Source: Nemertoderma westbladi (lineage: Eukaryota; Animalia; Xenacoelomorpha). From it: a stretch of 64,000 nt of DNA. The translations under genes and the position numbers were made by a program. Under the pieces are notes generated by a model. It saw only the letters and a list, made by a program, of their open reading frames with translations, made no database searches and was not told the DNA's origin. Numbering within the stretch: position 1 is the stretch's first letter; each line of letters begins with the position of its first letter. Positions 29,714 to 64,000 of this stretch are shown in pieces. The stretch is from the NCBI GenBank assembly GCA_032718475.1, contig JAUCBJ010003333.1, forward strand, positions 66,943-130,942, given 5' to 3'.

Positions 29714-29715
29714 TA

Positions 29716-29887: not shown

Positions 29888-29937
29888 GCCCTTTATAAGA
29901 GATTTGAATATACATATTACTTGCGGTTGTCGAAAAG

Positions 29938-31026: not shown

Positions 31027-31284
31027 GCTTAGGTTTATACTGTATATTAATTCATTTTGGTCGCATATGACCGTAATTAATCAATATTAACTCGAATGAT
31101 ATTACTATATCTATAGTTCATCCGTTTTAAATAAAGCCAATAAAATATTGATCCCGCGCATATACTGTAGAAGATGCGACAATGAACGTGGTCACAGATG
31201 TCTATAATTTAACATTATACTGTACTGTATGTACAATGGAGTCAAGTAGAGAGAGAGAGAGCTTAAATAATAATAATAATAATA

Positions 31285-32995: not shown

Positions 32996-32996
32996 A

Positions 32997-33560: not shown

Positions 33561-33562
33561 TA

Positions 33563-34822: not shown

Positions 34823-34848
34823 GTATATTATCTACAGAGGACCTTGAT

Positions 34849-35277: not shown

Positions 35278-35308
35278 TTAATCATTTAACTTTTGTTTAT
35301 CAGATAAA

Positions 35309-35911: not shown

Positions 35912-36489
35912 GTTTAACTGAGGTGGAAGATGTACTCTTACAGTAGGTTTACTCTAAGCTTGTAATGTGATGGGATAATATATTTGTTTTAATGTCAATA
36001 AAAAATAATAAAAACATTAAAATCTTTTTTTATATCACTGTTTACACTCACAAACACAACACACCTACCGGTAGCCGACTGTTGTATCAGAGTTTAACTA
36101 CCAGTAGCTAGCTGACTTTACACATACAGACATATAGAATGGCAGAATGGTGCCCTTCTAGACTGACAGCAACCACAAGGCTTTAGCACAAGGCTTACTA
36201 AATTAACTCAACATGGAGGGTTCGTGAATGCTGCATTAGAGAGGCCCTCCTAACAATAGGCCTACTGGTACCGAGGGCCCTGTAGCCCAGTACTTGAGGA
36301 TAGAGCAAGGGCATACCGCTTTCTTTGATTTAAGGATTACACTATTACACTTGAATGCTTCCAATTTTCTGTTTACAACTTTAATTGGTCTAATCTACAT
36401 TACTGCGGGCGGGCTACTACTGTCGCATAGGTAAGCCTATACAGCTATAGTTAACTTTATGCGGGGCCCTTTTTCGAATGTTGACCCAA

Positions 36490-36865
36490 TATGGTTTATG
36501 GTTAACCTTTAGTACTCGCGGATAGGTAAGGTACACTTTCATTCGGTTAGGCATATAGGCCTAATGACTTACTCCTCAACTGAAAGTTGACTAGCTCATT
36601 GATACAATAGGTGTGGTTAGGTACCGGTAGCGCTATAGGTCCTATAAAATCCCCTCGCACTCTCTGTTACTAACTTTCTACATTCACTCTATGTTGTATG
36701 CTTCTTTACAGTTAACCTTTAGAACTCTTGGTTAGGGGCGCCATCATTCAACCAGTCATATAATGGCTCCACTCGGATACAATAGGTGTGGCTCGCGGTA
36801 TACCTAACTAAGCCTATATAAAATCCACCCCATTCTCTGTTACTAACATTCACTCTATGTTGACG
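36490..36865. repeat. Diverged ~200-bp direct repeats with TATA-like boxes in the Maverick convergent intergenic region
   Basis: GTTAACCTTTAG, GATACAATAGGTGTGG, TATAAAATCC, TCTCTGTTACTAAC and CATTCACTCTATGTTG each occur twice. Confidence 0.7.
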
Positions 36866-37021
36866 GAGGGACTATATAAAACATAGTTAATTTATTTATG
36901 TATTCGCTTTTTTTTTTAAATTATATATAAAATAGATTCAGGCTACTAAGTTTTATAAGCAACAATAACTGATAACAATAACAACAACAACAACACTAAA
37001 TTTATTACTGTATTATACTTT

Positions 37022-37426
37022 TTATAGTCCTATATGTGGGTCCCTCTGTAGAGTTTCCTCCATTGCTGGTACCTGTAAATGGTTGTTTATAGGCCTAACT
37101 TCTACCGGTCTTTGTGATGGTATATTGAAGTGAAGCGTGTCATCAACATCATTCTCCCAATTTTCGCTAGAGGGTGAGCTTCCCGATATTTGCGGTTGTA
37201 TCTTTATAACAAGCGAGAAATCTTTTGAAATTTCAACCTTTGTAGGCGATAAAGGTAGACCTACTCCATATTCTACCGAAGTAAACCCAATCTCAAATTT
37301 TTTGTTTATATATCGCAACTCTATCTCAGCAATATTGGATGCTGCGAGATATGTTTCGTCGCTTGATTGCAATTCGATTTTGATACAACTTTTCAACTCA
37401 CGGTTATTGAAAAAGGCGAATGTCAT
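37022..37426 (-). CDS. Maverick accessory protein of unknown function
   Basis: 134-aa ORF in the minus-strand gene block. Confidence 0.5.
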   Translation of the reverse strand: MTFAFFNNRELKSCIKIELQSSDETYLAASNIAEIELRYINKKFEIGFTSVEYGVGLPLSPTKVEISKDFSLVIKIQPQISGSSPSSENWENDVDDTLHFNIPSQRPVEVRPINNHLQVPAMEETLQRDPHIGL

Positions 37427-37539
37427 CTTCGAGTTGAGGTAAGTTGTCGTCGTCGTCGTAACTAGGTACCGGAAAGAATATCTTTAAATTGAATAGGTAG
37501 GCCTACTGATATTTTTTTTTCTTCTTTTGTTTAACAAAA

Positions 37540-37767
37540 TTATAGTTCACTGTCAGAAAAATTGAGTTTATATATATTTTTGTAGAGGGTCGCAGATGTG
37601 TACATTACAAAATTCTCATAGTTAACAAAATGCACAACATAAACCTTTCCCATGCGGATTAGCGATATATGCTCTGGTCGTTGTTCTATTCTGAATGTAG
37701 GGAGATGCATAGCCGATGTTTTAATGATATGTACCGGTATACAGACTAGTAACAGATAGGAGGGCAT
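37540..37767 (-). CDS. Small hypothetical protein
   Basis: 75-aa ORF only. Confidence 0.3.
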   Translation of the reverse strand: MPSYLLLVCIPVHIIKTSAMHLPTFRIEQRPEHISLIRMGKVYVVHFVNYENFVMYTSATLYKNIYKLNFSDSEL

Positions 37768-38116
37768 CGTCTTTGACTATGAATACCAGCACATAGCCCT
37801 AATCTTTTCTCACCGAGCTTAGCGTTGCCCACCGCACTCACGCACACTCATAAGTAACAGATGCGCTATTGTAACTCACTTGTGAGCAACAATGCCAAGT
37901 TAGCTAGCTAGCTAGCTACAGCCCCTGAGTATACTATGCCTACTTGAGTGTTACAAGCAGCAATCGCTCTACCGAAGTTAATTTCCCCTCAAACTAGTTG
38001 TTGATTTTAAAAAAAAATATTCATAATTTTTTTCCAACCAATTTAATATATATATATATTTTACAGTAAAAATCTCCACCACCAAACAGCAACAACAACA
38101 ATAAATTTCACTCACA

Positions 38117-38695
38117 CTAATTATATTTTACAACAAAAACCCTCGCACCAAACAATAATAAATTATTAACCAGTTTGTTGAATATAGGGTAATATATATG
38201 AAATTTAAACGGGGAACACATTAATGTACATTTACCGGTGTAGAAGCAGCAAACAACAACATTATTATTTATTCTGACTTTACAGTTATTGAATATTTCA
38301 GGTTCATATATAACTTGAAGTTGCACATTATCAAAGACAACATAAAACCCGGTATTGTTTATCAATAACCTATAGACTACAGACTTAATACTAAAAATAT
38401 AAGTACATAAATTAACAGATTTTAAAATCAAATTAATACTAGTTTTATCAAATATATGCTTTTTTACTTTTTGGAAATTATACTTACTGCCTAATAATGT
38501 AATACAACCATTTTTAAATATTAATAATGTAGCGCCAAATATCTTATATATAAACTGATTTGGTTTGAGTATGTGTTTACCAGATAATTGATTTTTTAAT
38601 TCTTTAAAATTAATCGCTAACACTTGCTGGCAACTTATATTTTTATTTACTATTTGATAATTCATCATCAATACCATCGTCTTTTGGTTCTTCAT
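38117..38695 (-). CDS. Divergent TATA-binding protein (TBP)-like protein
   Basis: Two pseudo-repeats: INFKEL..ATLLIFKNGCITLLGSK and YEPEIF..VVCCFYTGKCTLM, cf. TBP YEPELF and LIF.SGK...TG. Confidence 0.75.
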   Translation of the reverse strand: MKNQKTMVLMMNYQIVNKNISCQQVLAINFKELKNQLSGKHILKPNQFIYKIFGATLLIFKNGCITLLGSKYNFQKVKKHIFDKTSINLILKSVNLCTYIFSIKSVVYRLLINNTGFYVVFDNVQLQVIYEPEIFNNCKVRINNNVVVCCFYTGKCTLMCSPFKFHIYYPIFNKLVNNLLLFGARVFVVKYN

Positions 38696-41600
38696 AAATT
38701 GGTATATTTGATATTTTTATAGGTTTTTTGAGGTTTGTTTTATAGTGCCCCCAAGGAAGCGAATGATTTTTATTAACCCAATAAAGTTTATCGTCAAAGC
38801 TACTGAGTGCAAATTTATTTTGCTTTAAGGTATAAATACGATGTAATTTAGATTGAAATCTGTGTATGTTTTTTTTTATTTCTTCATTTGAGTTATATGC
38901 TTTTAAATATTCTTCATGTGTAATATTCGTTTCCACAACAGCTCTTGTAATACCTTTTGCTCTACGAATATTTTTATTATTCCATTCCAAAGTTGAATAT
39001 AATTTTGGTCTTAAAAATACTGCTTGTTTAATTTCACGTGAGGCTAGTTCGTCTTTACAGTAATAGAGTCTGGATTTATTTTTATCGCTGTAGAGGGGGT
39101 GATCCTTAGGGTAATTGGAAGTATCTAAAATATTATTTTTAATTAATGCTTTTAAAAAATTATTCTGCGATGTATTATAATAACAACCTATCAATGAGTC
39201 AGTGTCTGATGCAGCAATTTCAATACGACAGTTTAATTCTTTCTCAATAGGTAGCAATTTATTGTAATACAGCTCATACATATCCAATTTAGCCAAGTCC
39301 AACACAGCGCTACCAATAAATATAGGCTTATCGAGAGTTACAGAGTCTTTCACTAATAAATGTCCCGATAATGTATTATTGTATATTATAAATTGTTCAT
39401 GATTAATACGATTTACCAATTGATCGCATTTATCGTTGCTATTTGCGATACGAAAGTTACATCGGTCTCGTATCCTCTCTATTGATTTGCCAAACAGTGA
39501 ATTATTGAGCAATTTCGCGACAGCAGTTTCAATGTAACTTTTTGCTAGGCGCCTTTGATTAATATTAAAATCTATGTAATTTTTAAATACAAATTCTTGT
39601 TGAAAAGAATATAATTTATGTAGTTTAGTAACAATTAATCCATGTTTTATATAAAATTTTAACAGTTTCAAATGTAAATGATAAAACTCTTTATCAAATT
39701 GCGTCAGCAAGAGTTTTGGTGTAGACATCCTATATTTACGGGAGGTACCTCTTTGTATCGATAAATTATTAAATTGTTCCCGCATATAAGGCGAAAGCAT
39801 TGTTTCATTTATACTTAAATGCTCTGGGGCTAACGGTAATTGTAATGTTTGATCGTGAATAGCCTTGGGATAATTTAAATCATATATTAAAAAATATCCA
39901 GTAGATCCATCAATGTCTAAATCTACCAAGTACTCGATTAGTTTTTCTGGAATTGCATTCTCCAAATGTTTAATACTTACTTCTTTGAATTGCGAGGTGG
40001 GTAGTTTTTTACTTAAATTCCCAGAATATAAAGAGTTGAAATCAATATTAAAAATATGGCATTCTTCCTTAGTAGAATCATATGTACTTGTTCCAGGTAT
40101 ATTTGATTCTATATAATGCTTTCGATAAAATTATACACCACCCCTAATTGATTTTTCAAAATCTCTATATGTTTGATAATCCTTTATTAATTCTATTTTA
40201 CATTTATTATATTTTAGCGCGCAATCATAGGTAAATGACGCAATACTACAGTAAAAAACCACTTCTAAATCGTAATTTTGTTTACAAACATTCCTAAAAT
40301 TCTCAAATATATCAGCAAGCAAACAAACATCGAGTTTTAAATAGGCTAAAAGATAATCTTTGAGATTCACACAGTCGAATTCTACCCATGATAATCCTGC
40401 AAACCTATAATCTTCAATTGTGCATGTTTTTTGTGTTAAGTTACTAAAAAAATTATTTATAGACGGCAAACCAGTATCATTAAATTTATTAATATCTGTC
40501 AAGTACTCGTATGGAAATACTCCTTTCCGTTTAATTGTTGAGTTATTCAAGTTTGGATAAAAATATTTCATTTCTTGTAGAGTAATAGGTAAAATTGAGC
40601 TTATATCATGACTCGCTACATCCTTTGTTGAACACTCAACTAAATTACTTAGGGAAAAGCTTAAAAATTGATATGTGTCTAAGAAACGTAACTCAATTTT
40701 TTTAGAAGTGTTTTTAATTGGGATAAACGCACTCAGTGAAATATATCGTTCTGTATTTCTCGGTATAACCTTTATATCCCAATCGGTGTATTTCTTATCT
40801 CTAAATCCGGTTTGTAATATACAATGTATATCGTAATTACTGGAATTGTGCCCGCAAAGTACATACAGGTATCGTTTCAATGATAAACTTCGGTTACAAC
40901 TATTACAGGCTGCTGCAATATATTTACCTGTAATATGTGAATGATGTCTGTTTTTCCCAACATTATTATTTAAAGTAACATTACAATAGAAACAAAATTT
41001 TGCCTGTTCAAAATTTACAAAATCAATATTAGTAAATGACATAGTTTTATGAGTGTATATGTCTGACCAACAACATAATTCAGTTAAATCAAAATATAAT
41101 GAATCTAAGAAATCTTGAATACAATTATTATTATTATTTGACTTTACGAATGTTTTCAAATGACATTTTGGGGGGGTTAATTAATTCAGTATTGGGAACA
41201 ATTAAATAACTCGCAGCACACGGTATATGCTCCTGTATAAATTGATTATTAACTGAAGGTTGTAAGATACATTCTATATCGAAGTAGGTGACAAACAATG
41301 GGGATAAGGTTCTATCTAAATTTGTAAAACTAATGTGTGTTCTTTTTTTATTAGGCAGTTTCTCTCGTTGACTTCTTCCTTGGTAGCATGCAAGACGGTG
41401 TCGTTGGAGAACTTCCGATTGAAAAAAATGAGCCAAACACCTTTCACAATATTTCCTATTCCCGATATGAAGAGCTCTCGTATTCAGCAATCGATTCAAG
41501 TTAGTTATGCAAACATAATGATTCAGTTTAGGTACATTGTTATTTTTTACTACAAGTAATATATTTAATAACTCTTTATCGGGTGTAATTTTACTAAACG

Positions 41601-42705
41601 GTGGTTGTCTTAATATAGATACGGGGGCGCGTTTGTTGTCGTTATTCCAACATAGTAAATTAATTATATATTTTGAATTTTGTTTTTCAAAAAGTTTAAT
41701 CGCTAACAGCCACTCTGTTGGATAATCTTTGTTCCCGTTGTCAAAAATGAAATGACTCATATAATTTTTGTACGATGAAGTACGGTTTTTGTGATCTTTC
41801 ACTTTGCTACTAAATTTTGCGGCTATAATAGCCCATTTGAAACAGTCATTATCTACCGTTTGAATATTTATTGTACATTTTTTAGCTGATAGAGCCTTAG
41901 GTAATTCCATATATCCATGCCCCTTATATAGTAACGACCTACACTTAGATTCAGCTAATTTAATTTCAACCCTTAATAAAGATTTAATACGCCATCCCGA
42001 ACCACGTGTGTTAAAGATGGCTATTTTTTGTAATATATTTTCCACAACATACTCAAACCATGTGTCAAAACTTTGCGGCGAATCTACAGTATTAATAGCA
42101 CCACCGGAAGAATTAAAATAAAAGGTTTCCAATTGCTCGCCTTCTGAAAAATGTGATCTGTACATTAATACTTTTAGACCTAACCACAGTCTAAGAACAT
42201 TCATTTCTTTCAATCTATCTAATATTAACTGAAGAATATTACCTCGAATTTGTGCTAATGCTGTTTCTACATCGGGATAATCTCTAGAAGTTGGGAGGTC
42301 GTGGACATAAATTTCAAGACGATTATCGTGAGCTTCTTGTTCCCGCGTAAAAATTGTTGCGCATGTACCAAGAGCCACCCTTAAGTTTTTTCTGGATATT
42401 ATATTTTTATGTTGCGGAAATTTACGCTTTCTTGTGTAGTAACATTTCAAGTGACAGTTGTGTCGTATATAATTCTCATATGTATACTCTTTATTACAGG
42501 TAGAACAAGTCAATTGATAGGTGCGGAACTCCATTTCTTTACAACCAGTAGTCGATTCATGTCGTTTACAAATTTCGCTGCATGAAGTCACAACATGACA
42601 CTTAAAACAATAATAACTTTCAAAATGTGACCGTAGGTGGCGTAAGTAATTATGTCTAGTTACATTCATATGACAGAATGAACAACATATTGTTATTTTA
42701 TCCAT
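38643..42705 (-). pseudogene. Protein-primed family B DNA polymerase with N-terminal Zn fingers, OTU-like region and HNH/EndoVII insert; frameshift near 41170 and TAA at 40131
   Basis: NDCFKWAI; Exo YFDIEC, HNSSNYDIH, RKGVFPYEY, YLKLDV; HHSHITGKY..ACNSCN; DFNSLY, KLLNNSLFGK, SDTDSL, RPKLY, AKGI. Confidence 0.95.
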
Positions 42706-42911
42706 GTTGAAGTTTGTTAGTTTGTTTAGATAAATAATAATAATAATAATAAAATATGTCCAAAGATTAAAATGAAATGAAATGAAATGAAATGTTATTG
42801 ACTATATCTAAACATTTATATGCTAGTGAGGGAAATAATTTTAAACCAATCACCAATCACCAATCGCTTATGACTATTAGAAACCACAAAGAGTTTAACT
42901 TATGATTAGGT

Positions 42912-43977
42912 TTACATATTAGGATAATAATCAGGTTTCCATGGAGAATTAGTAACAGGCTCTACTAGAGCTGGGTTACTGACAACTTTCTGTTTCTTTG
43001 CAGGTGATGTGTTGGTAAATTTACTCGATGATCTTGGCTTCCGAGGTAATATTTCAGGAAAGACCTGTTGCGGTTGAGAGCAACTCTCTTCAACATCCAG
43101 ATTAGGTGATGGGATCTCTACGAAAGCTTTAGGTTTATCCAAAAGGACAAAACCGTCAACATTGGCTTCAATAAGAGAAACGCCATCCATAGCCTCTTTG
43201 AGAAAACTAATATGGGCTTTATCATTCAAGTAATGCAACTCGATAGAATTTCCGCCGGCCCCTACTTCAGTAGAATTATCAGTGTTGGTGATAATAATTT
43301 TTTTATTATTGGTTTTAATCATTTTGAGACGGTCTGATAATTGAATGATATTTTTATCAAAAAGATGCTTGTCTGTTTCATCGACTTGGTTGTCCCACTC
43401 TCGCAACAAAACAGTTAGTTCCTGTTTTGACAAATTGAAACCTGTATAAATAGTTAAAACCAACACTATCAGCGTATCTGAGGCTGATTTTCCATAAGCC
43501 AACATAGTTGGTTCCTTTAAAAGCTGTTACAAATCCAATAAACTCTGGATTTGATAATTCAATGTAGAATTGATCGCTAATAATCTCTAGCGGTGGAGAG
43601 AGAAATTGCAATAATTTCCCTCTGTATTGAATTAGAACTTCAGTAAAAGCTTTGTTGAGAACTTTACATTTGCCTTGTTTCTGAACGTAAACATCACCCG
43701 ATGTGGGGTTGATGGAAATATTCAAATTTCCCCGCGCAAAACGAAGAGTGGGATATATCCTACCTGGTATAATTGCTGGTCTGGATTGATGTTGGTTGTT
43801 GTTGGTTGTTTCTAGAATGTCTAACAAATAGCGGGTATCTTGATGGGAAAAACAAATTGATTCGTTGTCCTCCTGAGATTCCACAATAAAATACTTGCTG
43901 TGAACGACGGTACAAGTATATTTATTGTAAGTAAATTTCCAGCTATTTGTTGCTCCGGTTTTTTGCGTTAAGGCCAT
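42912..43977 (-). pseudogene. Frameshifted ~350-aa protein with a PC4/Sub1-like segment
   Basis: ORFs 43378-43977 and 42912-43505 overlap; joined FVTAFKGTNYVGLWK...TGFNLSKQELTVL resembles PC4 VSV..FKG...IDIR...KGISL...QW..L. Confidence 0.5.
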
Positions 43978-44029
43978 AATAATAATAAATACGAAAAATA
44001 TTACAAGTGATAAATTTTAAACCGTATCG

Positions 44030-49325: not shown

Positions 49326-51625
49326 TTAATTAATTAACCTATTTAATTGTTTAAACATATAAATATTGAGATCCTCACCAACAACTACAAACTTCAATGA
49401 GTTTAAAGAACAGCTGATAGTAAAAGAAAAAGGATCAGTTCTTATAGGAATTCTTTGTAAAAATTCACCTTTAACTGAAAATAACGAAATATTTAAATCG
49501 CCTCTAATAATAATCGTATCACAATCTTTATTTACAAAGTTCACCTCTCTGACCCCCTCTACAGTGTTTATTACAGCCGTAGGTTTGTAATTAAACTTAG
49601 TAATAAGAGATAATTTATTAACCCAATTAGTCGCTTCGCTAATCCAATCCAATTCCTTTATATTTAAACTTTCATTATTTATAGGAAACTGAATTCCGTC
49701 TTTAGAATAAACTAATACAACTGAACCCTTTACTACGGCTATGTAGGAGCTGTTGGGAGAGAAAGCGAATGTGGATAAACTGAAACTTTCTAACTCAGTA
49801 ACTGGGAATCCGTCGTCAGTTACTTTTACTAACCCACTGAGTAACTTATTGTTACTAAACCCATACACAAAAATAATTCTAGAATCAGGTAAAACTACCA
49901 ACCTACAACCCTTTGGGAATTTATAATCAACAACCGAATGTTTCCCGGTTAATATATCGGTAAGAATTAATTTACCGCTCTCATCTAGAGTTGCTACTGT
50001 ATTGTTACAGTTTAATGCTACTAACTCACTAATCTTAGACCCCGGATTGGGTTGTAATTCTCTAATTAAGTGCCCCGGTTTCCCTACCAAGCAACGATAT
50101 AATTCCCATCGTAATTCAGATTCTTCCTGTTCCCCTAAGAATCTCCCATATCGATAATATTCTCGGAGTAACTCAGCCGACTCTTTATAACTCCACACAC
50201 TGAGTTTATCAGCCGCTATACTAACTAAATAGTTCGATGGAGCAACAAAAACTAATTCCTCTACAAGTTCACTAGATGTTGTTGGTAAAGTAATAAATTT
50301 ATTTCCATAATAAACACAAATAATTCCGTTGACACACCCGTAAGCGAAAACCGGTTGGTTTTCTATTCCAGTTAACCAAGATATCGGACTCTCTTCGTCT
50401 TTATTTAGTTTAATATTCCCTTCCATATCCATTATATGGAGGGAGTCCCACGTACTCGCTGCTATGGTAACCGGTTCCGTATCTAGAACAGCTCGAACCC
50501 AGTCGTATCCAGTTAGTTTACCACCGCTGGACGATTCTGTACCGACGCTGTTAATGTTTAGTGTTACAGTATCGGCCCCAATGTTACAGTAACACATAAA
50601 CTTACCAGATTGAGTTACATCCGCGCTGCTGGATGTCAACTTAACCGGTCCGATTGTACCGGTTACCATTCGGTGGGTTAGTTCTCCGGTTTTACCGTCC
50701 AGTAGTTCCGCACCCGATTGCCCCCAAGGAAATCCGGTTATTATAAGAACGCGATCCACCGCTCCGAGGTATTTAATTCCTTGGAGATGAATGTTGTATA
50801 ACTCGTTGGTATATCTCATCCCCCATATCAGCTTCCCATCCAATAAGTTCCAACATTCTACATCGAACCACCCCAACTCAACATTAACTTTATAACCTAT
50901 AATTATTATATCGTCCGCAACCCAATCTAGACATTCTATACCAAATTTACTGAACTCAAAGACTTTAATTGGCTTTTGTATTGAAGATAAATTAATAAAA
51001 TCCCAAAGTTTAACTCCCGGAGTTGGAATTGGGTGAGTGGAGTAGGTTATTAGATGTTTAGCTGTTGGTGAGAATGAAACTCCTATCTGGGAAGGGGAGT
51101 GGGCCTCCCAAGTTATAGTGGAGTCGGGGACCTCCGTATTGATACAACTGATAGTCCCGTTGTGGGACGAGAAACATAATATATTTGAATCCTTTGGATG
51201 GAAGTTTATACTGTTTGTGAGTATCGGTGGTGTTTTATTGATTAAATCTTCCTCCTTTATTACGGAATGGGAATCAAAATGATCGAATATTAATTCTCCA
51301 TCAGTTGAATCCCGAATATGAATCCATCCATCTAAAGTTCGGTAACATATCCTTCTTGCATCAGCCGATAATTTTGCATCATATAGATATAGCGATGGAT
51401 TGATATTAATTTTATCTTCTGTAATAATCTTCTTCCCACAGGCAGCATCGCAAATCATTAACTTATTATCGACGTAAACTAGAATCGTTTTTCCATCAGC
51501 AGATAACTGAATTCCATACGTCAACCGGGTCTCGTAATCCTTCAGTAACTTTATCGATAAGGGTTCATCTGTTTCATCTCTTGTTCTATTCATTGAGTTG
51601 CTGAGATCGAAATATAGTTTATTTT
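49326..51625 (-). CDS. Exon 2 of the caspase-Apaf-1-like gene: WD40 beta-propellers
   Basis: Acceptor TTTTATTATTTGCAG at 51626; in frame with exon 1 (..CND/ENKLYFDLSN, cf. Apaf-1 LYLEWIN); WD repeats SADGK, FHP, AH..VSFSP..VKLWD, FAFSPNS. Confidence 0.85.
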
Positions 51626-52067
51626 CTGCAAATAATAAAATAACAACACAAACTAATCAGATGATTATAATAAATTATAATTGATTAATTATAAAATATT
51701 ATTTACAATTTACAAATATTAATATTGTTCTACTTCTAATAGAGAGGGATATTTATAATACCGGTACGAATAATCTGCTATCCAATATTAATTAATATCC
51801 ATGCTATGGGGGGGGGGGGGGGGGGGGTCATTTTTTAAATTTCTTTGTAATACCTCTTAGTATCTCAAGTATCTTTGATTCAGGGTCGTTGGAAAAACAA
51901 AGATTTCGTGACTTTTCCTAAAGTTTAATGGGCAATCCAACAGAGCAAACGCCAAAACATCTCTTTCGTCCCTTTCTTGTACCCATCTCAGTATTTTCTG
52001 TGCTAAAATTGCAACAGATTTTATTATAACTTTTTGTTTGCACCGCTTTTGCAAAGCCGGCTATGAC

Positions 52068-52138
52068 ATCCACGTGGGATCGAACTGGTGACCTCCGGGT
52101 TGGAAGTCTGACGCTCTAACCATTCAGCTAGCGGCCAG
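52068..52138 (-). repeat. tRNA-like SINE head in the intron
   Basis: TAGCTGAATGG A-box and AGTTCGATCCC B-box; no clean acceptor stem. Confidence 0.6.
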
Positions 52139-52169
52139 GCAAAAGATAGACCTGGAAATATGTAACAAT

Positions 52170-53110
52170 TCGATCTGGTAGATAAAGTGTCACAGAACGC
52201 CGATGATACAAAGTTTTTTATAATTGATGATGACGCTGATGTTCTAGAATTCCTACTAGTTTTATTATAACAATTTTCTCTGGTCTCAGGCCTCGAACTA
52301 AATGAATCCAAAACCGAAATTATCCGTATCGGCAAAACAAAGAATTCTAGAGTAAAACTATGCCCCCATCGTAAATAAAAATGGTTAGAGCCGGATTAAC
52401 CCTTCAATGTCCTCGGTGTTTTAATATCGTCTGATACTACCAAAATAGAAAAAATGAATTTTAGACGATGCATTAAAAAAGTTAAGATGACAATAAATTT
52501 ATAGAGAAAACATAAGCTGGCACTTTTAGGTAGAGCTACCATCATTAAATCACTCATACTGCCAAAATTTATGTATAGCTTCTCGTGTTTGAAAACACTA
52601 TCGCAAACTACCATGAACAATGACAGTAATAGACTTTTTGTGGGAACGAAAACCTCCAAAATTCAAACATATATACTTATTGCGGATATTACAACTGGGG
52701 GTATAAAACTGCCAGACGTAGTGGAGTATGCAAAAAGTCAGAAAATAAAAAGGATAACTAAAATCTCTAAAAGAGAAAACTAAGTTATATGGAACGAACT
52801 CGCATGAAATAGCTTTACAACAAGTATAAATAATGAGATTTTTATGTGTTGCTGTAACTTACACGAGAAGGATGTTAAAGGTATGGGCCTGTGTAAAAAT
52901 GAATTCTGGGAAGAAGTTCTTGCTATCTGGTGCAAACTTATTAATACATATGATCAGAATGACACAAACACAAGAACCAAAGACTACAAGAAACAAAAAT
53001 AATAAATTAGATTACATCTGGCTTAATTCCAAAATAAAAATTAACAATAAACCACTATTTTGGCCAGATTGGATCCAAAAGGAGTATATTTATTGTGCCA
53101 CTTAATTGCA
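52170..53110 (+). mobile_element. Degenerate L1/Tx1-type RT C-terminal fragment in the intron
   Basis: ADDT..; SLVSGLELNESKTEI; LLGRATIIKSLILPKFMY; GGIKLPD; IWLNSKIKINNKPLFW. Confidence 0.75.
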
Positions 53111-54204
53111 CCAGTAGCTAACAATCAGTTCCGTTATATAAGTCTCATCGATGCTATTACTCCGACCCACAGAAAGAAACTATGAACTAAAATTCAAAGT
53201 CCAGCCTTTATAAAATCTCATTATAGTTTAGGAGTAGTGGGGTCAACAAAACGCGCATACCTCACTTTCATACATGAAAAAATACAAACAAATAAATTAA
53301 TAATTTAATTAATAATTAATTTTAAAATAAATAATTCAATATTAAAATATAAATTTAAAGCTGTGCCCAACAAAAAGTTATAGGGCCTAATAATTTGATA
53401 AATGAATTAAATTAAATGGATGGATAAAATAAATTATTTTTTCCATTTCTGAACAAAACCATAATATGACACCATAATAATTTGAAACCACTCATTCGCC
53501 CTAACACAATAATAAAAGATTTTATGGCTCACTAAAATTAATTTATTTGCAGTATTGCGGTATTTTTGCAGGGAGCAGGTGAGAGGCGTATTGTTGCAAA
53601 GGCTGCCTGGAGGTACATGTTGTGACAGGAGAAACAGTTAAGAAGAAAATTTTTTCGATTCCGTTATTCAGTACTGAGTAATAAATAGCCTTTAAAATAA
53701 ATGTAAAGTGCATTTTTTATTCGTATGAAATTAAATTGAAAAAACTTATTTCATAGAATAAATTTAGTGAATTTGTTATCAATATTTCGCTTAATCCACT
53801 TTACGTTGTTTCATTCTCGAGTTATGGAAACTTTTGTAATTTTCACCCAAAATTGAAAAAGTTGTAATTTTGGTGCAGCACCACATTTGACACTAAAAAA
53901 TGATCATAAAACACACAGAAATTTCGAAATATCTTGCCATTTACGGAATCAGCGCCGAAACTTACTACTAGAGGTACTTATTCAGCCGTTAGGCCAGTGA
54001 ATACGCACAACGTTAACGTATGATTACTATTTCCAGTGCGCTCCCCCTGAGGAAACTCTAGTACTCATTTAACTTCCATTTAAGTTTGCAAGGCAGATTT
54101 TGCGCCCTGGCTTTAAAACATTCTCGCCGGCCTCCATGCGGGGATCAAAAACACGACCTCCGGAGAGATATGAACCACTACACCAAGGAGGTGGGACTAA
54201 CATA

Positions 54205-57200
54205 CATGTCGCACAATCTCAGAATTGAGTTAACAGACTCCATCTCTTGTTGCACAATTTCCGAATTGAGTTAACAGACTCCGTATCATGTCGCACAATC
54301 TCTGGATTGAGTTAACAGACTCCGTCTCATGTCACACAATCTCCGTATTGAGTTAACAGACTCCGTGTCATGTCGCACAATCTCCGGATTGAGTTAACAG
54401 ACTCCGTCTCATGTCACACAATCTCCGTATTGAGTTAACAGACTCCATCTCATGCCGCACAATCTCCGGATTGAGTTAACAGACTACGTCTCATGTCGCA
54501 CAATCTCCGGATTGAGTTAACAGACTCCGTCTCATGTCACACAATCTCCGTATTGAGTTAACAGACTCCGTATCATGTCGCACAATCTCTGGATTGAGTC
54601 AACAGACTCCGTCTCATGTCGCACAATCTCTGGAATGAGTTAACAGACACCGTCTCATGTCGCACATTCTCTGGATTGAGTTAACAGACTCCTTCTCATG
54701 TCGCACAATCTCTGGATTAAGTTAACAGACTCCGTCTCATGTCGCACAATCTCCGGAATGAGTTAACAGACTCCTAATCATGTCGCACAATCTCCGGATT
54801 GAGTTAACAGACTCCGTATCATGTCACACAATCTACGGATTGAGTTAACAGACTACGTATCATGCTGCACAATCTCCGGATTGAGTTAGCAGACTAGGTC
54901 TCATGTCGCACAATCTCCGGATTGAGTTAACAGACTCCTTCTCATGTCGCATAATCTCCGGATTGAGATAACAGACTACGTCTCATGTCGCACAATCTAC
55001 GGATTGAGTTAACAGACTACGTATCATGCTGCACAATCTCCGGATTGAGTTAGCAGACTAGGTCTCATGTCGCACAATCTCCGGATTGAGTTAACAGACT
55101 CCTTCTCATGTCGCAAAATCTCCGGATTGAGATAACAGACTACGTCTCATGTCGCACAATCTCTGGATTGAGTTAACAGACTACGTCTCATGTCGCACAA
55201 TCTCCGGATTGAGTTAGCAGACTAGGTCTCATGTCGCACAATCTCCGGATTGAGTTAACAGACACCGTCTCATGTCGCACATTCTCTGGATTGAGTTAAC
55301 AGACTCCTTCTCATGTCGCACAATCTCTGGATTAAGTTAACAGACTCCGTCTCATGTCGCACAATCTCCGGAATGAGTTAACAGACTCCTAATCATGTCG
55401 CACAATCTCTGGATTGTGTTAACAGACTCCGTATCATGTCGCACAATCTCCGGATTGAGTTAACAGACTCCTTCTCATGTCGCACAATCTCTGGATTGTG
55501 TTAACAGACTTCGTATCATGCTGTACAATCTCTGGATTGAGTTAACAGACTACGTCTCATGTCGCACAATCTCCGGATTGAGTTAAAAGACTCCGTATCA
55601 TGTCGCACAATCTCCGGATTGAGTGAACAGACTCCGTCTCATATCGCACAATCGCCGAATTGAGTTAATAGACTCCGTATCATGCTGCACAATCTCCGGA
55701 TTGAGTTAACAGACTACGTCTCATGTCGCACAATCTCCGGATTGAGTTAACAGACTGCGTCTCATGTCGCACAATCTCCCGATTGAGTTAACAGACTACG
55801 TCTCATGTAGCACAATCTCCGAATTGAGTTAACAGACTACGTCTCATGTCGCACAATCTCCGGATTGAGTTAAAAGACTCCGTCTCATATCGCACAATCG
55901 CCGAATTGAGTTAATAGACTCCGTATCATGCTGCACAATCTCCGGATTGAGTTAACAGACTACGTCTCATGTCGCACAATCTCCGGATTGAGTTAACAGA
56001 CTGCGTCTCATGTCGCACAATCTCCCGATTGAGTTAACAGACTACGTCTCATGTAGCACAATCTCCGAATTGAGTTAACAGACTACGTCTCATGTCGCAC
56101 AATCTCCGGAATGAGTTAACAGACTCCTAATCATGTCGCACAATCTCTGGATTGTGTTAACAGACTCCGTATCATGTCGCACAATCTCCGGATTGAGTTA
56201 ACAGACTCCTTCTCATGTCGCACAATCTCTGGATTGTGTTAACAGACTTCGTATCATGCTGTACAATCTCTGGATTGAGTTAACAGACTACGTCTCATGT
56301 CGCACAATCTCCGGATTGAGTTAAAAGACTCCGTATCATGTCGCACAATCTCCGGATTGAGTGAACAGACTCCGTCTCATATCGCACAATCGCCGAATTG
56401 AGTTAATAGACTCCGTATCATGCTGCACAATCTCCGGATTGAGTTAACAGACTACGTCTCATGTCGCACAATCTCCGGATTGAGTTAACAGACTGCGTCT
56501 CATGTCGCACAATCTCCCGATTGAGTTAACAGACTACGTCTCATGTAGCACAATCTCCGAATTGAGTTAACAGACTACGTCTCATGTCGCACAATCTACG
56601 GATTGAGTTAACAGACTTCGTCTCATGTCGCACAATCTCCGGATTGAGTTAACAGACTCCTTCTCATGTCGCAAAATCTCCGGATTGAGATAACAGACTA
56701 CGTCTCATGTCGCACAATCTCTGGATTGAGTTAACAGACTACGTCTCATGTCGCACAATCTCCGGATTGAGTTAACAGACTCCTTCTCATGTCGCACAAT
56801 CTCCGGATTGAGTTAACAGACTCCGTATCATGTCGCACAATCTCCGGATTGAGTTAACCGACTCCGTATCATGCTGCACAATCCTCGGATTGAGTTAACA
56901 GACTCCGTATCATGTCGCACAATCTCCAGATTAAGTTAACAGACTCCTTCTCATGTCGCACAATCTCTGGATTGTGTTAACAGACTCCGTATCATGTCGC
57001 ACAATCTCCGGATTGAGTTAACAGACTCCTTCTCATGTCGCACAATCTCTGGATTGTGTTAACAGACTTCGTATCATGCTGTACAATCTCTGGATTGAGT
57101 TAACAGACTACGTCTCATGTCGCACAATCTCCGGATTGAGTTAAAAGACTCCGTATCATGTCGCACAATCTCCGGATTGAGTGAACAGACTCCGTCTCAT

Positions 57201-58130
57201 ATCGCACAATCGCCGAATTGAGTTAATAGACTCCGTATCATGCTGCACAATCTCCGGATTGAGTTAACAGACTACGTCTCATGTCGCACAATCTCCGGAT
57301 TGAGTTAACAGACTGCGTCTCATGTCGCACAATCTCCCGATTGAGTTAACAGACTACGTCTCATGTAGCACAATCTCCGAATTGAGTTAACAGACTACGT
57401 CTCATGTCGCACAATCTCCGGCTTGAGTTAACAGACTACGTCTCATGTCGCACAATCTCCGGATTGAGTTAACAGACTACGTCTCATGTCGCACAATCTC
57501 CGGATTGAGTTAACAGACTACGTCTCATGTCGCACAATCTCCGGATTGAGTTAACAGACTACGTCTCATGTCGCACAATCTCCGGATTGAGTTAACAGAC
57601 TACGTCTCATGTCGCACAATCTCCGGATTGAATTAACAGACTACGTCTCATGTCACACAATCCCGGATTGAGTTAACAGACTACGTCTCATGTCGCACAA
57701 TCTCCGGATTGAGTTAACAGACTCCGTATCATGTCGCACAATCTCCGGATTGAATTAACAGACTACGTCTCATGTCGTACAATCTCCGGATTGAGTTAAC
57801 AAACTACGTCTCATGTCGCACAATCTCCGGATTGAGTTAACAGACTCCGTATCATATCGCACAATCTCCGGATTGAATTAACAGACTACGTCTCATGTCG
57901 CACAATCTTCGGATTGAGTTAACAGAATACGTTTCATGTCGCACAATCTCCGAATTGAGTTAACAGACTCCGTATCATGTCGCACAATCTCCGGATTGAA
58001 TTAACAGACTACGTCTCATGTCGCACAATCTCCGCAATGAGTTAACAGACTCCGTCTCATGTCGCACAATCTCCGGATTCAGTTAACAGACTCCGTCTCA
58101 TGGCGCACAATCTCCAGATTCAGTTAACAG
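54205..58130. repeat. 41-bp tandem satellite (~96 copies) inside the intron
   Basis: Consensus CATGTCGCACAATCTCCGGATTGAGTTAACAGACTCCGTCT, head to tail without spacers. Confidence 0.97.
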
Positions 58131-58590
58131 TCCCCTGTAACATTGCCCTGAGTCGCTCAGAAATTACGTAAACTTAGATTTTACATACTTATGTACAGTA
58201 TATTCTGTGCTACATTAATTAATATTATACCATCTACATTAATCAATAATGTTGGGTATTATTATGTATTTGTGTTTATCTGTTATATAAGTTTATGCAA
58301 CTATTGGACTGTCAGTGCGCTTATTGTATATTGTTAATTATTTAATTATTGTTAAATAATATGCATTTCGTCATTAAAACTAATTAAATAACTATTAGAA
58401 AGACTGTTGAATGGAAACTCATTTATGTAATGGGTAACTTACACCTTATCCATTAACTACGCATTATTCCATAGTATGTTACTGGGATAGATTGTGCGAA
58501 TTTTATAATTCAGCCCAATGTCTCTCACTTACTTCTATACATTTTTATGTAGGTTATACAGTGTGTTACATATTTAGTTTACACACTTAC

Positions 58591-60795
58591 CATCATTGCA
58601 TAACTCTTGAAGTGCGATTTCCCGTGACTTTTTGTAAAATCCCGATGTTTTTGGAGCCATCAATCCGACTTGAATTATGTCGCACCTTTCTGTCCCAGTG
58701 AGGTTCGCACATAGTCGACGGATTGTCGATCGGAATATTTCCTGCTCTGCTTTTTGGTCTTCCGAAAGTTTCTGGTCAGCCAATTCGTAATCAGCAATAA
58801 GATTCGCAGGTCCACTGAACTTAATCTTTGATTTAATCCAAAGAATGTTAGTTAGTAGTTGGTGTCTTTCTTCCCAGAGAGTTGCTTTCGCCATATGATT
58901 AGCAAGGAATTCAAACATATATTTGTCTAATGTCTTTGGATCCACTCCAGATTTTAAGTTAAAAGGTTTATAATTTTCAACTAATTGTCGATGAGTCTCA
59001 GTTGTTTCTTTTTGTCTTTCAATAAACTCCATAAGCAGTGGATGTAAAGACCAAAGTTTTGATTCAGAATTATTTGATAGAAGTGATTTATTCACCAGTT
59101 GATTTAATGATAATCGTGTACCTCCAATATTTGAATTACTAAAAAAAGCAACTATTTCACTTGTAAATTCATAACATCCAACTTGCCCAAAAACAGCTAG
59201 TTTAATATAAAGTTCTCTAAGTTTTGGCGTTAGATAATCAACACTAAGTTTTATTGTGGCAGTTATTGATTTATCGTAGTCCAAACCAGCATCAGTTCCA
59301 TCTAATTCGGGCAGATATTCGTCAATATCTTGCCAAGTTAGTTCAGAGTTGTCTCTTTTTACAGCTCCAACCAAATTCACCGCCAATGGGGAGCCATAAC
59401 ATTTTCTCATCACTATTTTTGCTTCTGCTGACATTATAAACTCAGGGCCTATCCACATTCTGAGTAGTTTCTCAGATTGGGCGGAATTTAGCCCATCATT
59501 TACACAAATATATGATACATTTGGATAATCTGAAGGAATGGATTTTATATCTCGAGTAGTTACCATTATAGGGCAACTTATATGGAAAGCTTGGATTACA
59601 AATTTATCCCAAACATCATCTAACAATATCAAACAACGAGGTTTCTTATTAATAATATTATTTAAAGCACTTGTGCAGCTCTTAATACTGAACAACTGGC
59701 TGACTAACTGATGAGATGATTCATCTATCATTAAATGCATTTCTTTCATTTTCTGCACGAGAGCATTCTTTCCAACAGGACCGACTCCCAAGGCCCAATG
59801 TGTTGCCAATATATACCATGAGGGTATTTGTTTATAAAAACTTCATCGTTTACTGAATCGATTGCCAAAGTTGTTTTCCCTATGGCAGCCATTCCCGATA
59901 TAGCTACCCAACCTGGTTGACCTTTCAGCTCATTCAGACCCTTTCTAACTTTATCTACCATGTCGGGGCGGGGAATGTGATAATTGGGAACCTTTGGAAT
60001 TAACCAGCGCGGAAAATCAGGTGGAATTTGTGGAACAAATTCTAAAAGGTGTACGGATTTTGCTAAATAATCATATATTTGTGGATGTGATATAATAGAA
60101 TTTTCATCTGTACCTCGATGCACAATGTTATAATTCCTCACCACTGGTAATAAATCCACTTTAACATCATCCCCAGCTGTTTCTTTATTTAGGATATTGT
60201 TAACTACTTTACAAACATAATGTATGAAAGTCGACCCCTGGTCTTCGTACATTGGTAAAGTCTCACCTGGACTGCAACCGATTGCTACAGCTGTATGTTC
60301 AAATATACGATCACTGAAATTTAAATCGCAGTCTGGATAAGGGTTGGACTGGCAGGCTTCTACAAAGAATATCCGAGGTTTTGGAACCGGACCACTTAGT
60401 GCCAAACATTCTGTTGAGAATAGTTCCACAATTTTTTTTATAGGTACTGTTACTTCGTTGGAACAAACAAGCTCACCCTCAATTCCATGACTCATAAGGA
60501 ATACAAAAAGACACTCAATGTCATTTAATTGTTTCTGATTACTAAATTTTTTTAGGAATTGTATCAACTCATGATCTGTTATGTTCTTCTTCACTTCACC
60601 TTTCTCATCTCTATATTCTACTATCTCACAACCCAACTTGCCTCCAAATATTTCCTTAATGATTTTTACATCATGTGATGACCCTTCTCCTCTGTCGTCA
60701 TCAGAGTATTTAGTACCGCGATAATCTGTAATATTTATTATCAGACATAATTGTTTACCATCTCCTGTAATTTTGTATGAGTTTGATTCCGCCAT
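58591..60795 (-). CDS. Exon 1 of the caspase-Apaf-1-like gene: caspase domain + NB-ARC + helical domains; frameshift at ~59800
   Basis: Caspase CLIINI, FLMSHG, KPRIFFVEACQ, GSTFI; NB-ARC GWVAISGMAAIGKT, LILLDDVWD, IMVTTRD, GSPLA, LHPL, FLANHM, WIKSK..GPANLIADY; donor G|GTAAGT at 58590. Confidence 0.85.
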
Positions 60796-60981
60796 AACAT
60801 AAAATAAGCTTTGCAGTTTATGTTGTTATTAATTGATTTATGCTGTACGCACGTAATTTATCAAGCTACTTTTGTCAATAAACTAACCAACAAGTTGTCA
60901 AAGTGTTTACAATATTTAATTATATATATCTACGCAATTAATATAACTACGTTTTTTTAAACAATAACTTAGTTTATATAC

Positions 60982-61320
60982 TATTACTACTACTACTAGG
61001 TCGAGCGAACTGGGATAGTGGAAATGAGATCCTTCCAGGCTTCCCGATTCTCCATTGTCGCAATTTCGCTTCTCCCAAGTTCAGTATCCCTTTTAAGTTG
61101 ATCTATATATGTTATGGCCGGTCGGCCACGACTACGCTTTCCATGAGTTGGTCGCCAGAAAAATAGATCTGGTATGACCTCGTCTTTAATAAAAGCACGG
61201 CGTTTGTCATGTGTTGTCTCCAGGTGATATTTAGGGCTGCCCTCAGGAGTCTTGTGTAGTAACCATCAAATCGTTGTTCAAGTGATTTAGTCAGTGTCCA
61301 GGTCTCACCCCCGTTTAAAA
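60982..61320 (-). mobile_element. RTE 3' fragment
   Basis: GETWTLTKSLEQRFDGYYTRLLRAALNITWRQHMTN; (TAG)n tail. Confidence 0.85.
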
Positions 61321-61404: not shown

Positions 61405-64000
61405 TGTAAAAGCTTTTGTGGGATAACTGATACGTTTGCCTTTGCTGGCCAGTTCCCCCCCAGGCGCTGGAATACTCTAAAAAAGGTTTTCTAACTGTAT
61501 ATATATTCCCCTCGCCCGCAAGGTACCTTTACAGGTGTTTTAACGGACATAAAAGTAATTCTGCTATATACGTGTTTTAGTGGACATGGTAAGACAAAAA
61601 ACTTGTAATGCACTAACTACCTTTCACAGCTTAGCCGTGATGATTCATATTACGACATCTAGCAGCTGGTTGCTGGCATGGAAACAGCCATTGGACGCGT
61701 GGTTCTTTGTTTGGCTTGGGCCAATCAGGGCGGTTTTTCCTGTCGACGTGTAGCTTTTCTGCCGATCATAAGGAGAGTGTTCAGTCTTACTGTTTTTTCT
61801 TGATACTTTGTTGTTATTGCTGTCTAAGCCAGAAACACCGGCATTTTTGGATAGATACTGCTGTACCGTAAACTGCTTGAATTATCGAAAGTATAAACTG
61901 TTACCGAATCGAACTGACTTAAATCACTCATCTCACCTTAATACTTTTAATTACATTAATCATATTGTTTGTACTGTTATTTTACCGTCAGTTATTAATT
62001 GTAAATATTTGTTGATGGAAATATTGCTATTTGGATAATACGGATAAATCACCCAATTCCCAATTTTCTTGATAACACTACAGGTTAGAGAGACCGGCTA
62101 TATATAACAATTGCGATTTATATTAATGTGGTGTGTATTGAATCCAATGTTATTTAGCAGACCCTACGTGAGTCAATTACTGCTCTCTTTATGTGTGATC
62201 AAATGTACTGACTGTCGGCAGAATAGTGTGTATGATTGTGATTGGTAACAAAGTATTTCCTAAAGAATACGTTTTATACTTTAATCACAAGCAGTATCGT
62301 TGCGTTTTAGTATAAGTCCTAGCTCTGTTTAAATAGATAAAGCGCCACGTCCTAAAGGAACTGTTAATATTTCCCGAAAGCCAATAATATCTGTCAGAGA
62401 TTAATTATTAACGATCTATCGAATAATACATTAGGTATACACTGCAACCTTACACTGTAATAATACAATTCAAGCATCCGAATTCAGTCTCCCGGGTGTA
62501 GATCCATCGGGTGAATGATCGCGCATGGGCTGATTTCGGCTAATGTTTTGCGTATTAGCATAAATTATTGTCGTATGCTAAAGTGGTTTTAATTAACTAA
62601 AAGACATATAAAATTTGGCAGGTTAAACTGCTAAAGGTCTTCGAAAGCGCGAACAGTAACAGTTTATACTGTATTGCAGTGTAAGCATTAAATACAGTTT
62701 AATACTGTTCTGTCGAACAGTAACAGTTTATACTGTATTGCAGTGTAAGCATTAAATACAGTTTAATACTGTTCTGTCGAACAGTAACAGTTTATAATCT
62801 TATTGCAGTAAGCAATAAGGTTGCAAGTGTAGGCATTAAATACAGTAAAATACTGTTCTGTCGAACAGTAACAGTTTACAATCTTATTGCAGTAGGCAAT
62901 AAGGTTGCAAAATACCGTAGTGACCGGTAAAACTGAACCGGTACTTTGTAGGTCAGTAGGCCTAACTGTCATCACCGGTACCGGTACTGCTGTACAAGTA
63001 CATTTAGTATTATTCGATTTTGATTATTGTATACCGGTAGGCTGTTTAAGAGATTAGGGACTGTACACCCCTTGTTTCTTTTGGAGCTTACTTATTTCTG
63101 TCAGTTTTATTTCCTAGTAAGTTAATATTGAGCTGAAGACGTGTAAGTCTGCTCAGATTGTTCAGATAATTGTAGGCTGAGCTGCTGTCTGACTGTGGTT
63201 GGGTTTGGAGAGATTACGGCGTGTGTAGAGTTTGTCTGATAAAGTGCCGTTAGTAAGTTGGGGCAGTCATAACTGTAAGGTCAATCCCCTCTTAAAGAGT
63301 AAGTCGTACTACCGTGTTAGCACGCATACTAACTAACAGTTTCAGAGTCTGCATATACTGTAGTTTATTTAGGCTTGATCGTGGTCTGCCAGTGTTTTTA
63401 GCCTGTGTTTGTTTGTGTGGTCTGTTCAGGTACCGTAATAGTTATTACTCAAATATTTGTAGGCTGGATTGTTGTCTAGCTATTTTTGGGTCTGAAGGGA
63501 TTGCTGCGTGTGTAGAGTTGGTCTGATCAAGTGCCGTTAGTAAGTTGGGGCAGTCATAACTGTAAGGTCAATCCCCTCTTAAAGAGTAAGTCGTACTACC
63601 GTGTTAGCACGCATACTAACTAACAGTTTCAGAATCTGCACATACAGTAGTTTGTTTAGGCTTGATAGTAGTCTGCCAGCGTTTGGTTTGTATTTGTTTG
63701 AGTATTCTGTACGGGTAGCGTAATATTTATTATTCAGAGTTTATGCGATTATTCGCAACATTCATGTCCCCAAGTTTATTCCTACAGTAATTGTGCTTGT
63801 TATACATACCGTTATAGTTAAACTAACCCCGGTACTACATCAGGGCTGCTTGGCGTAGGTAAAGACTGACGACTTTGTGCTTCGGTCACTCCAGCAGATG
63901 CCGTGGTTCTTTTAACTGTTCAAGTATATTTAACTACTGATTATTTGTTATACCGGTACTTGTACCTAATTTAGGGTTTAGAGTACAGTGCCTTCCGAAG
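61405..64000 (+). mobile_element. Second BEL/Pao copy: 5' LTR (61405-62606), PBS-like motif (62616-62640) and leader; continues beyond the window
   Basis: Inverted homology to 19631-20783 and to ~15040-15720. Confidence 0.88.
62650..62900 (+). repeat. ~62-bp tandem repeats in the BEL copy 2 leader
   Basis: GAACAGTAACAGTTTA..TATTGCAGT..GCATTAAATACAGT..AATACTGTTCTGTC about 4 times. Confidence 0.85.

Follow-up and report, generated by a model that had tools for sequence, protein, structure and literature searches.

A caspase domain in place of the CARD of an Apaf-1-type protein in Nemertoderma westbladi: a candidate single-chain sensor with an altered specificity pocket

The apoptosomes and inflammasomes of animals are taught as two-part machines, the caspase being a separate protein that is brought in by a death-fold domain. 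Here we consider a locus that raises the question of whether an animal sensor might carry its protease in its own polypeptide. It lies in a 64,000-nucleotide stretch from the xenacoelomorph Nemertoderma westbladi (assembly GCA_032718475.1, contig JAUCBJ010003333.1, positions 66,943 to 130,942), hereafter the window, by whose numbering all coordinates are given. A preliminary description of this DNA, made from the letters alone, had proposed that a caspase catalytic domain is joined directly to an Apaf-1 body on the minus strand. We find that the caspase-Apaf-1 fusion is real at the DNA level and that the gene is unusual: it is of the Apaf-1 lineage, yet it is neither a canonical Apaf-1 (there is no CARD) nor a canonical caspase (there is no aspartate pocket).

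The fusion is contained in one minus-strand open reading frame (ORF; 60825..59746, first ATG at 60795), which holds the caspase domain and the start of the NB-ARC module in a single frame, as had been described. Pfam profiles match Peptidase_C14 (PF00656) at residues 15-200 (E 1.5e-21) and NB-ARC at residues 278-331 (E 1.2e-6), and the SHG, EACQ and Walker A motifs stand at 60492, 60360 and 59895, respectively. In a PDB search residues 4-151 of this ORF align with effector caspases and residues 266-338 with residues 119-192 of human Apaf-1 (E 7.8e-11). A second ORF in a different frame (59842..58574) supplies the remaining NB-ARC and the APAF1_C domain (Pfam E 7.7e-13 and 2.3e-23) and matches Apaf-1 181-587 (E 4.3e-40); hence Peptidase_C14, NB-ARC and APAF1_C, three of the profiles that the preliminary description had proposed for a check, are all matched. 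The third ORF (51656..49326) is an open frame of 776 codons with weak propeller matches only. The caspase takes the position of the CARD in Apaf-1, about 12 residues ahead of the nucleotide-binding domain (NBD), and the join between the two is in frame, at exact domain borders. When spliced, with an X at a break in the frame that is taken up below, the model is a stop-free protein of 1496 residues. Given how often stops occur locally, the chance probabilities of frames that stay open for 349, 422 and 766 codons are 1e-12, 4e-15 and 9e-27, and the codon-position bias is coding-like in all four segments (GC1 0.42-0.53, GC3 0.27-0.35).

The earlier claim that neither a CARD nor a prodomain precedes the protease is consistent with what we found in the 3.2 kb upstream of the gene within the window: tblastn with three Apaf-1 CARD proteins gave no match there, and none of its 16 minus-strand ORFs of at least 40 residues has a Pfam match. 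An exon beyond the window could still add a CARD, death domain (DD) or death effector domain (DED), resulting in a death fold-caspase-NB-ARC-WD40 protein. The readable upstream DNA is indeed only 3.2 kb, and the other intron of the gene is 7 kb long; nevertheless, we take such an exon to be very improbable, as the protein can be aligned with caspase-3 from residue 4 onwards, the ATG is flanked by G at both -3 and +4, and the sole AG in the open stretch ahead of the caspase (60809) is a poor acceptor with 6 of 15 pyrimidines, unlike the strong one at 51626. The fusion would stand regardless of it.

The downstream part of the gene is reached through a predicted intron, the donor of which (58590, G/GTAAGT) and acceptor (51626, a pyrimidine tract followed by TGCAG) are canonical and both in phase 1. 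Among 34 in-frame donor/acceptor combinations, none scores as high as these two sites against a profile of eight Apaf-1-type proteins (67.5 bits, with 61.3 for the next and 50.6 for exon 1 alone). Splicing here would restore the LYF motif that trails helical domain 2 (HD2) in Apaf-1, with the first residues of exon 2 supplying it, which argues that exon 2 belongs to the gene. Thus, the in-frame GT-AG intron proposed before is also the one that we would predict. The sizes given before, about 765 residues of WD40 repeats in a protein of about 1500, likewise hold, with 766 codons and 1496 residues, but the WD40 label is the weakest part of the observation: the Pfam propeller matches of exon 2 are all below threshold (best E 1.3e-5), and its score of 0.96 to WD40 clusters of the Atlas comes with a recognition value under that tool's mark.

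Read across one frameshift, the Walker A, Walker B, sensor 1, GxP and winged-helix domain (WHD) histidine motifs of the Apaf-1 body are all intact, and the APAF1_C domain (HD2, PF17908) follows the WHD. An Asp-to-Pro change after the WHD histidine was considered as auto-activating and dropped; the position varies in 3 of 8 references. That there is a single frameshift, as had been noted, follows from the overlap of the two frames at 59842-59746. However, it does not look like a trivial slip: with all switch points scanned, a net surplus of 14 bases at about 59806-59770 is the best offset in each of seven divergent Apaf-1 references, with a modest margin over a one-base loss (mean score 235.9 versus 224.7), and three fish references agree. 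Frame A ends at a TGA (59748-59746), and the copy as written would encode a 349-residue caspase with an NBD stub. Two ways of bypassing the break were discarded: there is no slippery heptamer in the overlap for programmed -1 frameshifting, and a mini-intron is unlikely, the best of 86 frame-restoring GT/GC-AG options having a mean score of 215.6 versus 235.9 (the windows compared differ slightly at their ends). Homopolymer sequencing errors do not usually take the form of 14 extra bases, so we favour a real lesion of this haplotype over an artefact. The 4505 coding bases contain no other lesion, and about 1150 codons are open beyond this one; hence, it is probably recent or allelic, which fits recent function, and the copy is probably a recent null allele.

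The same lesion would also be expected of a young chimeric pseudogene, in which a copy of a caspase was shuffled or retroposed in front of a duplicated Apaf-1 body and the fusion never worked. Such an origin would fit with the caspase, NB-ARC and HD2 all being in one intronless exon, with the richness of the window in mobile DNA (Pao/Bel and Polinton-like elements and, by eye, a LINE-like tail about 200 bases upstream) and with the lack of a relative in any search. Nevertheless, we judge it decidedly unlikely, given a short linker and an in-frame join that falls exactly on the domain borders, a single lesion in 4.5 kb, the coding-like codon bias of the four segments and, as detailed next, pocket changes that are concentrated at specificity positions while structural residues are kept.

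The fold of the protease domain is that of a caspase. An AlphaFold2 model built on an alignment with 44 caspase hits (pLDDT 88.6, pTM 0.90) has caspase-8, -7 and -3 as its best Foldseek matches, and in VIA-align comparisons the three best caspase chains have Z-scores of 27.8, 27.6 and 26.3, as against 22.5 for c-FLIP, 20.8 for MALT1 and 17.8 for a plant metacaspase. The best caspase chain aligns over 222 residues (rmsd 2.2), and caspase-8, -3 and -9 are among the structural matches at Z 26-28. A single-sequence PDB search also places effector caspases first, with an ancestral effector caspase as the best match, and the named best database matches of the protease are animal caspases. AlphaFold2 on the single sequence of the first ORF gave a low-confidence model (pLDDT 32), and the small-subunit region by itself has no PDB sequence match and was placed by profile and structure instead. 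A prediction of two copies of the caspase domain in complex scored 0.00, which weighs neither way on dimerisation.

The specificity pocket tells a different story from the fold. Arg179, Gln283 and Arg341 are described as the basic S1 pocket that binds the P1 aspartate (available text of PMC2064784). We scored these columns over 139 caspase domains from 118 database hits and found that, while His103, Gly104 and Cys148 are kept, all three are changed, with Gly36, Glu146 and Met182 at the positions of Arg179, Gln283 and Arg341, respectively; the Ser339 column is replaced too, by Leu180. Structural residues are kept while the changes cluster at specificity positions, and the catalytic cysteine is 38 residues from the G-S-x-F motif, compared with a median of 53 in 76 rows. 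Among the 122 domains with gap-free S1 columns (17 are gapped), 92 retain the catalytic dyad and all three residues, and 3 have the dyad with none of them, in a Leu/Asp/Asp or Leu/Asp/Ala pattern unlike that of our protein. The working caspase that had been deduced from the His/Cys dyad is hence in doubt: the dyad is present, but with all three aspartate-specificity residues replaced, cleavage after Asp is unlikely. We predict instead that the domain is either altered in specificity or inactive, inactivity being the main alternative. In the para- and metacaspases, as far as PMC2064784 describes them, there is Asp at 283, Asp or Glu at 341, Leu at 179 and a further Asp six residues on. Two of the three acidic features of such a pocket occur in our protein (Glu146 and Asp42, the latter also being present in ordinary caspases), together with Met at 341. 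With its basic residues gone and an acid in place of Gln283, the pocket resembles those of para- and metacaspases in these respects, and Arg or Lys at P1 is our best guess. In a FastTree phylogeny of 140 caspase rows the domain falls in no well-supported group and, weakly, apart from four domains with a paracaspase-type pocket.

Another reading of these replacements is that the fusion works, or once worked, with its caspase domain as a non-protease: a c-FLIP-like scaffold or decoy that would heterodimerise with an ordinary caspase or trap caspase inhibitors of pathogens, with the Apaf-1 body reporting. The loss of the whole S1 trio and of the Ser339 residue is in line with this, as is the scarcity of domains that keep the dyad without any of the trio (3 of 122, with other patterns); moreover, a change of Arg341 to Lys is by itself taken to predict a loss of function in mouse caspase-12 (PMC11121540, in its available part). 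Against it, the catalytic His, Gly and Cys persist, whereas c-FLIP-L has lost its catalytic residues, and a Glu at 283 beside a retained Asp42 is the change seen in Arg/Lys-specific members of the clan. We hence regard the non-protease as unlikely.

The origin of the two halves can be approached through the nucleotide-binding oligomerisation domain (NOD), which in phmmer comparisons scores 136-178 bits with eight Apaf-1-type proteins and 108 with the best bacterial one. We built a tree from it, the eight Apaf-1-type proteins (six with animal names; the other two are P0128 and P0148) and 16 high-scoring bacterial rows out of 52 that were long enough, the bacterial relatives coming from four of five plasmid hits and 43 loci. 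A branch with support of 99/97 separates the NOD and the Apaf-1-type proteins from all 16 bacterial rows; the tree that had been suggested as a check of the NB-ARC part thus joins it to animal Apaf-1. An earlier tree with two bacterial-type outgroups was uninformative, with long branches meeting and a p of 0.279 in the approximately unbiased (AU) test. At the N-termini of 12 bacterial relatives we found three CHAT, five TIR, one kinase and one SMEK domain, with two lacking a match, and no ORF of the bacterial relatives matches the animal caspase profile. With a NOD that sorts with animal Apaf-1 and a protease of animal-caspase fold, the gene points to a fusion assembled in an animal out of animal parts, independently and not through transfer.

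By comparison, we deem it most improbable that the whole cassette came from bacteria or is an assembly chimera. Protease-Apaf-1-propeller proteins do exist in bacteria, CHAT is the N-terminal domain of 3 of the 12 relatives, and the Atlas clusters nearest by features are cyanobacterial caspase-nSTAND1 proteins (0.83, a lead only). However, besides the position of the NOD, the protease is of the caspase type rather than CHAT or metacaspase, the domains of the relatives are CHAT, TIR, kinase or SMEK, with no ORF that matches the animal caspase profile, and the gene has a spliceosomal intron; a misjoin that is in frame at domain borders is not expected of a chimeric assembly either. Among the bacterial loci themselves, Acaryochloris plasmids (L001 3901-9014, L002, L003 and L004) have an NB-ARC gene followed by a TIR gene, with a TPR gene in three of the four; the NB-ARC gene of L001 has an N-terminal CHAT domain.

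How rare such a fusion is was examined with phmmer over 1.84 billion representatives, which returned 380 hits. Since the scores of the two parts add, a fused relative should rank near the top; among the best 150 of the 380 no protein has caspase and NB-ARC matches together, and the best single-part hits score about 55 and 48 bits. A widespread architecture, which would have undercut the original proposal, is thus not what these 150 show. Their highest ranks are tandem caspases of about 30% identity and one spurious hit; P0010, the second-best hit, has no caspase domain and was set aside. Invertebrate-type caspases joined to kinases, ankyrins, Roc-COR, a GTPase and WD40 are found among the hits, which indicates that caspase shuffling as such is common. 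Individual fusions among the hits include caspase-GTPase (P0080), caspase-WD40 (P0144), Roc-COR-caspase (P0074), GT4-caspase (P0079), pannexin-like/LRR-caspase (P0101) and kinase-caspase (P0088). Word-index protein searches, the longer one and the near one with E up to 1, found no relatives of the first ORF; for the second they found seven fish Apaf-1 proteins and one protease-NB-ARC-WD40 protein without a CARD. An exact look-up of four translations from the window gave none, NCBIfam gave no hits for three proteins, scans of metagenomes, genomes and viral contigs with single proteins, which reach close relatives only, yielded nothing confirmed, and no second copy of the gene lies within the window. 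Nor did an animal caspase-NB-ARC fusion turn up in the literature searched, of which coverage was partial. Close relatives were missing for every part of the gene, which suggests that its lineage is poorly sampled, and the absence is therefore weak evidence of rarity within its own group.

Taken together, we think it probable, on balance, that the gene is an Apaf-1-lineage sensor with a caspase in place of the CARD, that its intact allele would activate a tethered protease of non-Asp specificity by itself, and that the present copy was broken recently. Judging from the biology of Apaf-1 and the caspases, the propellers would hold the ADP-bound NOD closed until ligand binding by the divergent propellers, with nucleotide exchange, opens it, whereupon opened protomers would assemble into a ring. 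Adjacent caspase domains on their 12-residue tethers might then dimerise and become active with no recruited caspase-9. In the available part of PMC11121540, initiator caspases are described as being activated through forced dimerisation on their platform. The pocket of Gly36, Asp42, Glu146 and Met182 would be predicted to cut after a non-Asp residue, and, in place of a classical caspase-3 cascade, the protease might act on a substrate dedicated to signalling or death. From the divergence of its propeller exon, the sensor would seem to bind something other than cytochrome c, with a pathogen or danger signal as the most likely ligand.

Several points weigh against this interpretation. The frameshift strips this copy of most of the NOD and of the sensor, and neither the window nor the database scans showed an intact allele, a paralogue or an orthologue. 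The acidic pocket is incomplete, with Met182 at 341 and not the Asp or Glu of paracaspases, so that the domain may be inactive, and Arg35, one residue off the Arg179 column, might substitute for Arg179. The structural model, having been built on a caspase alignment, is biased toward caspases. In the NOD tree the query has a long branch (2.13) and a deviant residue composition, and is sister to the eight Apaf-1 rows from outside them (91/92). Finally, hhalign of exon 2 against fish Apaf-1 propellers gives a probability of 4.6%, an unconvincing alignment.

A bolder version, which is tentative and rather doubtful, is that an animal lineage independently made a single-chain apoptosome out of Apaf-1 and a caspase of its own and shifted the pocket from a preference for Asp to one for Arg/Lys, in convergence with both MALT1 and the bacterial protease-STAND receptors, with intact alleles or paralogues serving as self-contained immune or death receptors. 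A natural fusion of this kind would show that a return to the direct protease-STAND design is possible in animals. With its stoichiometry fixed at one protease per protomer and its tether length also fixed, it would cleanly test the induced-proximity model of initiator caspase activation. A true caspase scaffold that keeps the dyad with three aspartate-binding residues replaced would be useful for understanding how specificity switches in clan CD, the value of all this being limited pending an intact, expressed copy.

Table 1. Parts of the caspase-Apaf-1 fusion gene, in window coordinates
Feature	Positions	Strand	Remarks
Caspase domain, large and small subunit, residues 1-252	60040..60795	-	begins at first ATG; no prodomain; short inter-subunit linker
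Catalytic His103	60487..60489	-	H in 131/139 caspase domains at this column
Glu146-Ala-Cys148: catalytic Cys, and Glu at the Gln283 position	60352..60360	-	C in 135/139; Q in 112/139, E in 3/139
Loop with Gly36 at the Arg179 column, Arg35 adjacent, Asp42 six residues on	60670..60693	-	R in 126/139 at the Gly36 column; D in 131/139 at 42
Leu180-Pro-Met182, Met at the Arg341 position	60250..60258	-	R in 110/139; S or A in 118/139 at the Leu180 column
In-frame linker of ~12 residues, last caspase strand to Apaf-1 NBD	60001..60039	-	caspase fold aligned to 252-254; Apaf-1 alignment from 266
NB-ARC, first part, Walker A at 59895	59806..60000	-	Pfam and Apaf-1 alignment
Frameshift region	59770..59806	-	best fit is a net 14 surplus bases
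NB-ARC second part, helical domain 1 (HD1), WHD, HD2	58591..59788	-	Walker B 59626, sensor 1 59563, GxP 59395, WHD His 59047, APAF1_C 58999-58607
Predicted GT-AG intron, phase 1, 6965 nt	51626..58590	-	from sequence and homology
41-bp tandem satellite inside the intron	54205..58130	.	~96 copies, 89% matches, more than half of the intron
Exon 2: end of HD2 connector and divergent WD40-like beta-propeller region, 766 codons	49326..51625	-	no internal stop

Several other elements share the window, the content of which (retroelement remains, a Polinton-like element, satellites and a spliceosomal intron) is eukaryotic and animal-like. Two LINE-like 3' fragments were recognised by eye on the minus strand, at 60996-61265 and 21195-21929, with a weak DUF6451 match for the second only; the first terminates in a short TAG repeat, some 200 bases before the start codon of the caspase. 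Repetitive DNA further upstream (62956-63999 and 61977-62668) has 69-85% identical copies at 15040-15796 and 19605-20300. A Polinton/Maverick-like element at 27374-44016 encodes an A32-like ATPase, an rve integrase, an adenovirus-type protease, a type B DNA polymerase divided among three ORFs, a protein X-like ORF, two penton-like ORFs and one capsid-like ORF, the last three ORFs being assigned by position and size only; a single search of viral contigs with the capsid-like ORF gave no relative. Right behind the polymerase is a minus-strand match to TBP, the TATA-binding protein (38117-38716; Pfam, above cut-off, E 3.2e-7). A broken Pao/Bel LTR retrotransposon (5360-13974, minus strand) retains DUF1759, an aspartyl protease, Peptidase_A17 and DUF5641, with a 402-codon ORF without a Pfam match before these remains (12766-13974). 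Two successive minus-strand ORFs in the same frame (1056-3611; 665 and 185 codons with one stop between them) also lack a Pfam match.

Set beside known systems, the body of the protein is that of Apaf-1: the NBD-HD1-WHD-HD2 array is collinear with Apaf-1 119-590 at about 27-31% identity, with the same motifs and the same LYF connector into the propellers. It differs from Apaf-1 (CARD-NB-ARC-HD2-WD40, acting with caspase-9) in having the caspase domain where the CARD would be, a longer propeller region (about 760 residues) that is not confidently alignable, and two exons. Invertebrate Apaf-1 paralogues are described as swapping the CARD for a double CARD, DD, DED or TIR (available parts of PMC2246300, PMC2575513 and PMC6321704), and metazoan systems as working with death-fold adaptors (PMC8195603 and PMC3879445, likewise in part). 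All the swaps described there are interaction domains, whereas here it is a protease that has been swapped in.

The protease resembles animal caspases (caspase-3, -7, -8 and -9; clan CD, C14A) in having the full fold over residues 1-254 with the His-Gly and Cys dyad, and departs from them in its replaced S1 trio, short inter-subunit linker and C-terminus tethered to an ATPase. With MALT1 and the metacaspases, as covered in the available text of PMC2064784 and PMC4357240, it shares an acid two residues before the cysteine, an Asp on helix 1 and the lack of Arg179, but it has Met at 341 and a fold nearer to the caspases (Z 27.8 versus 20.8 and 17.8). The accessible text of PMC2575513 reports TNFR-caspase and LRR-caspase "shortcut" proteins in amphioxus, which also unite sensor and caspase in one animal polypeptide; unlike our protein they have, as described there, no STAND ATPase switch and keep the canonical active-site pentapeptide.

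The closest parallel in design is bacterial. The metacaspase-NACHT-WD40 architecture and two metacaspase-NB-ARC proteins are described from bacteria (PMC3501461, available part), and CHAT-NB-ARC proteins are among our own scanned relatives, as noted above. Like these receptors (PMC13581612 and PMC3501461, as far as their accessible text goes), the fusion places a caspase-fold protease, a STAND ATPase and a beta-propeller sensor in one chain; at the DNA level the protease-STAND-repeat architecture is present here, provided that the splice is used and the break absent. Unlike them, it has an animal caspase scaffold and an animal Apaf-1-type NOD in a spliced gene, and the design hence looks re-invented rather than inherited.

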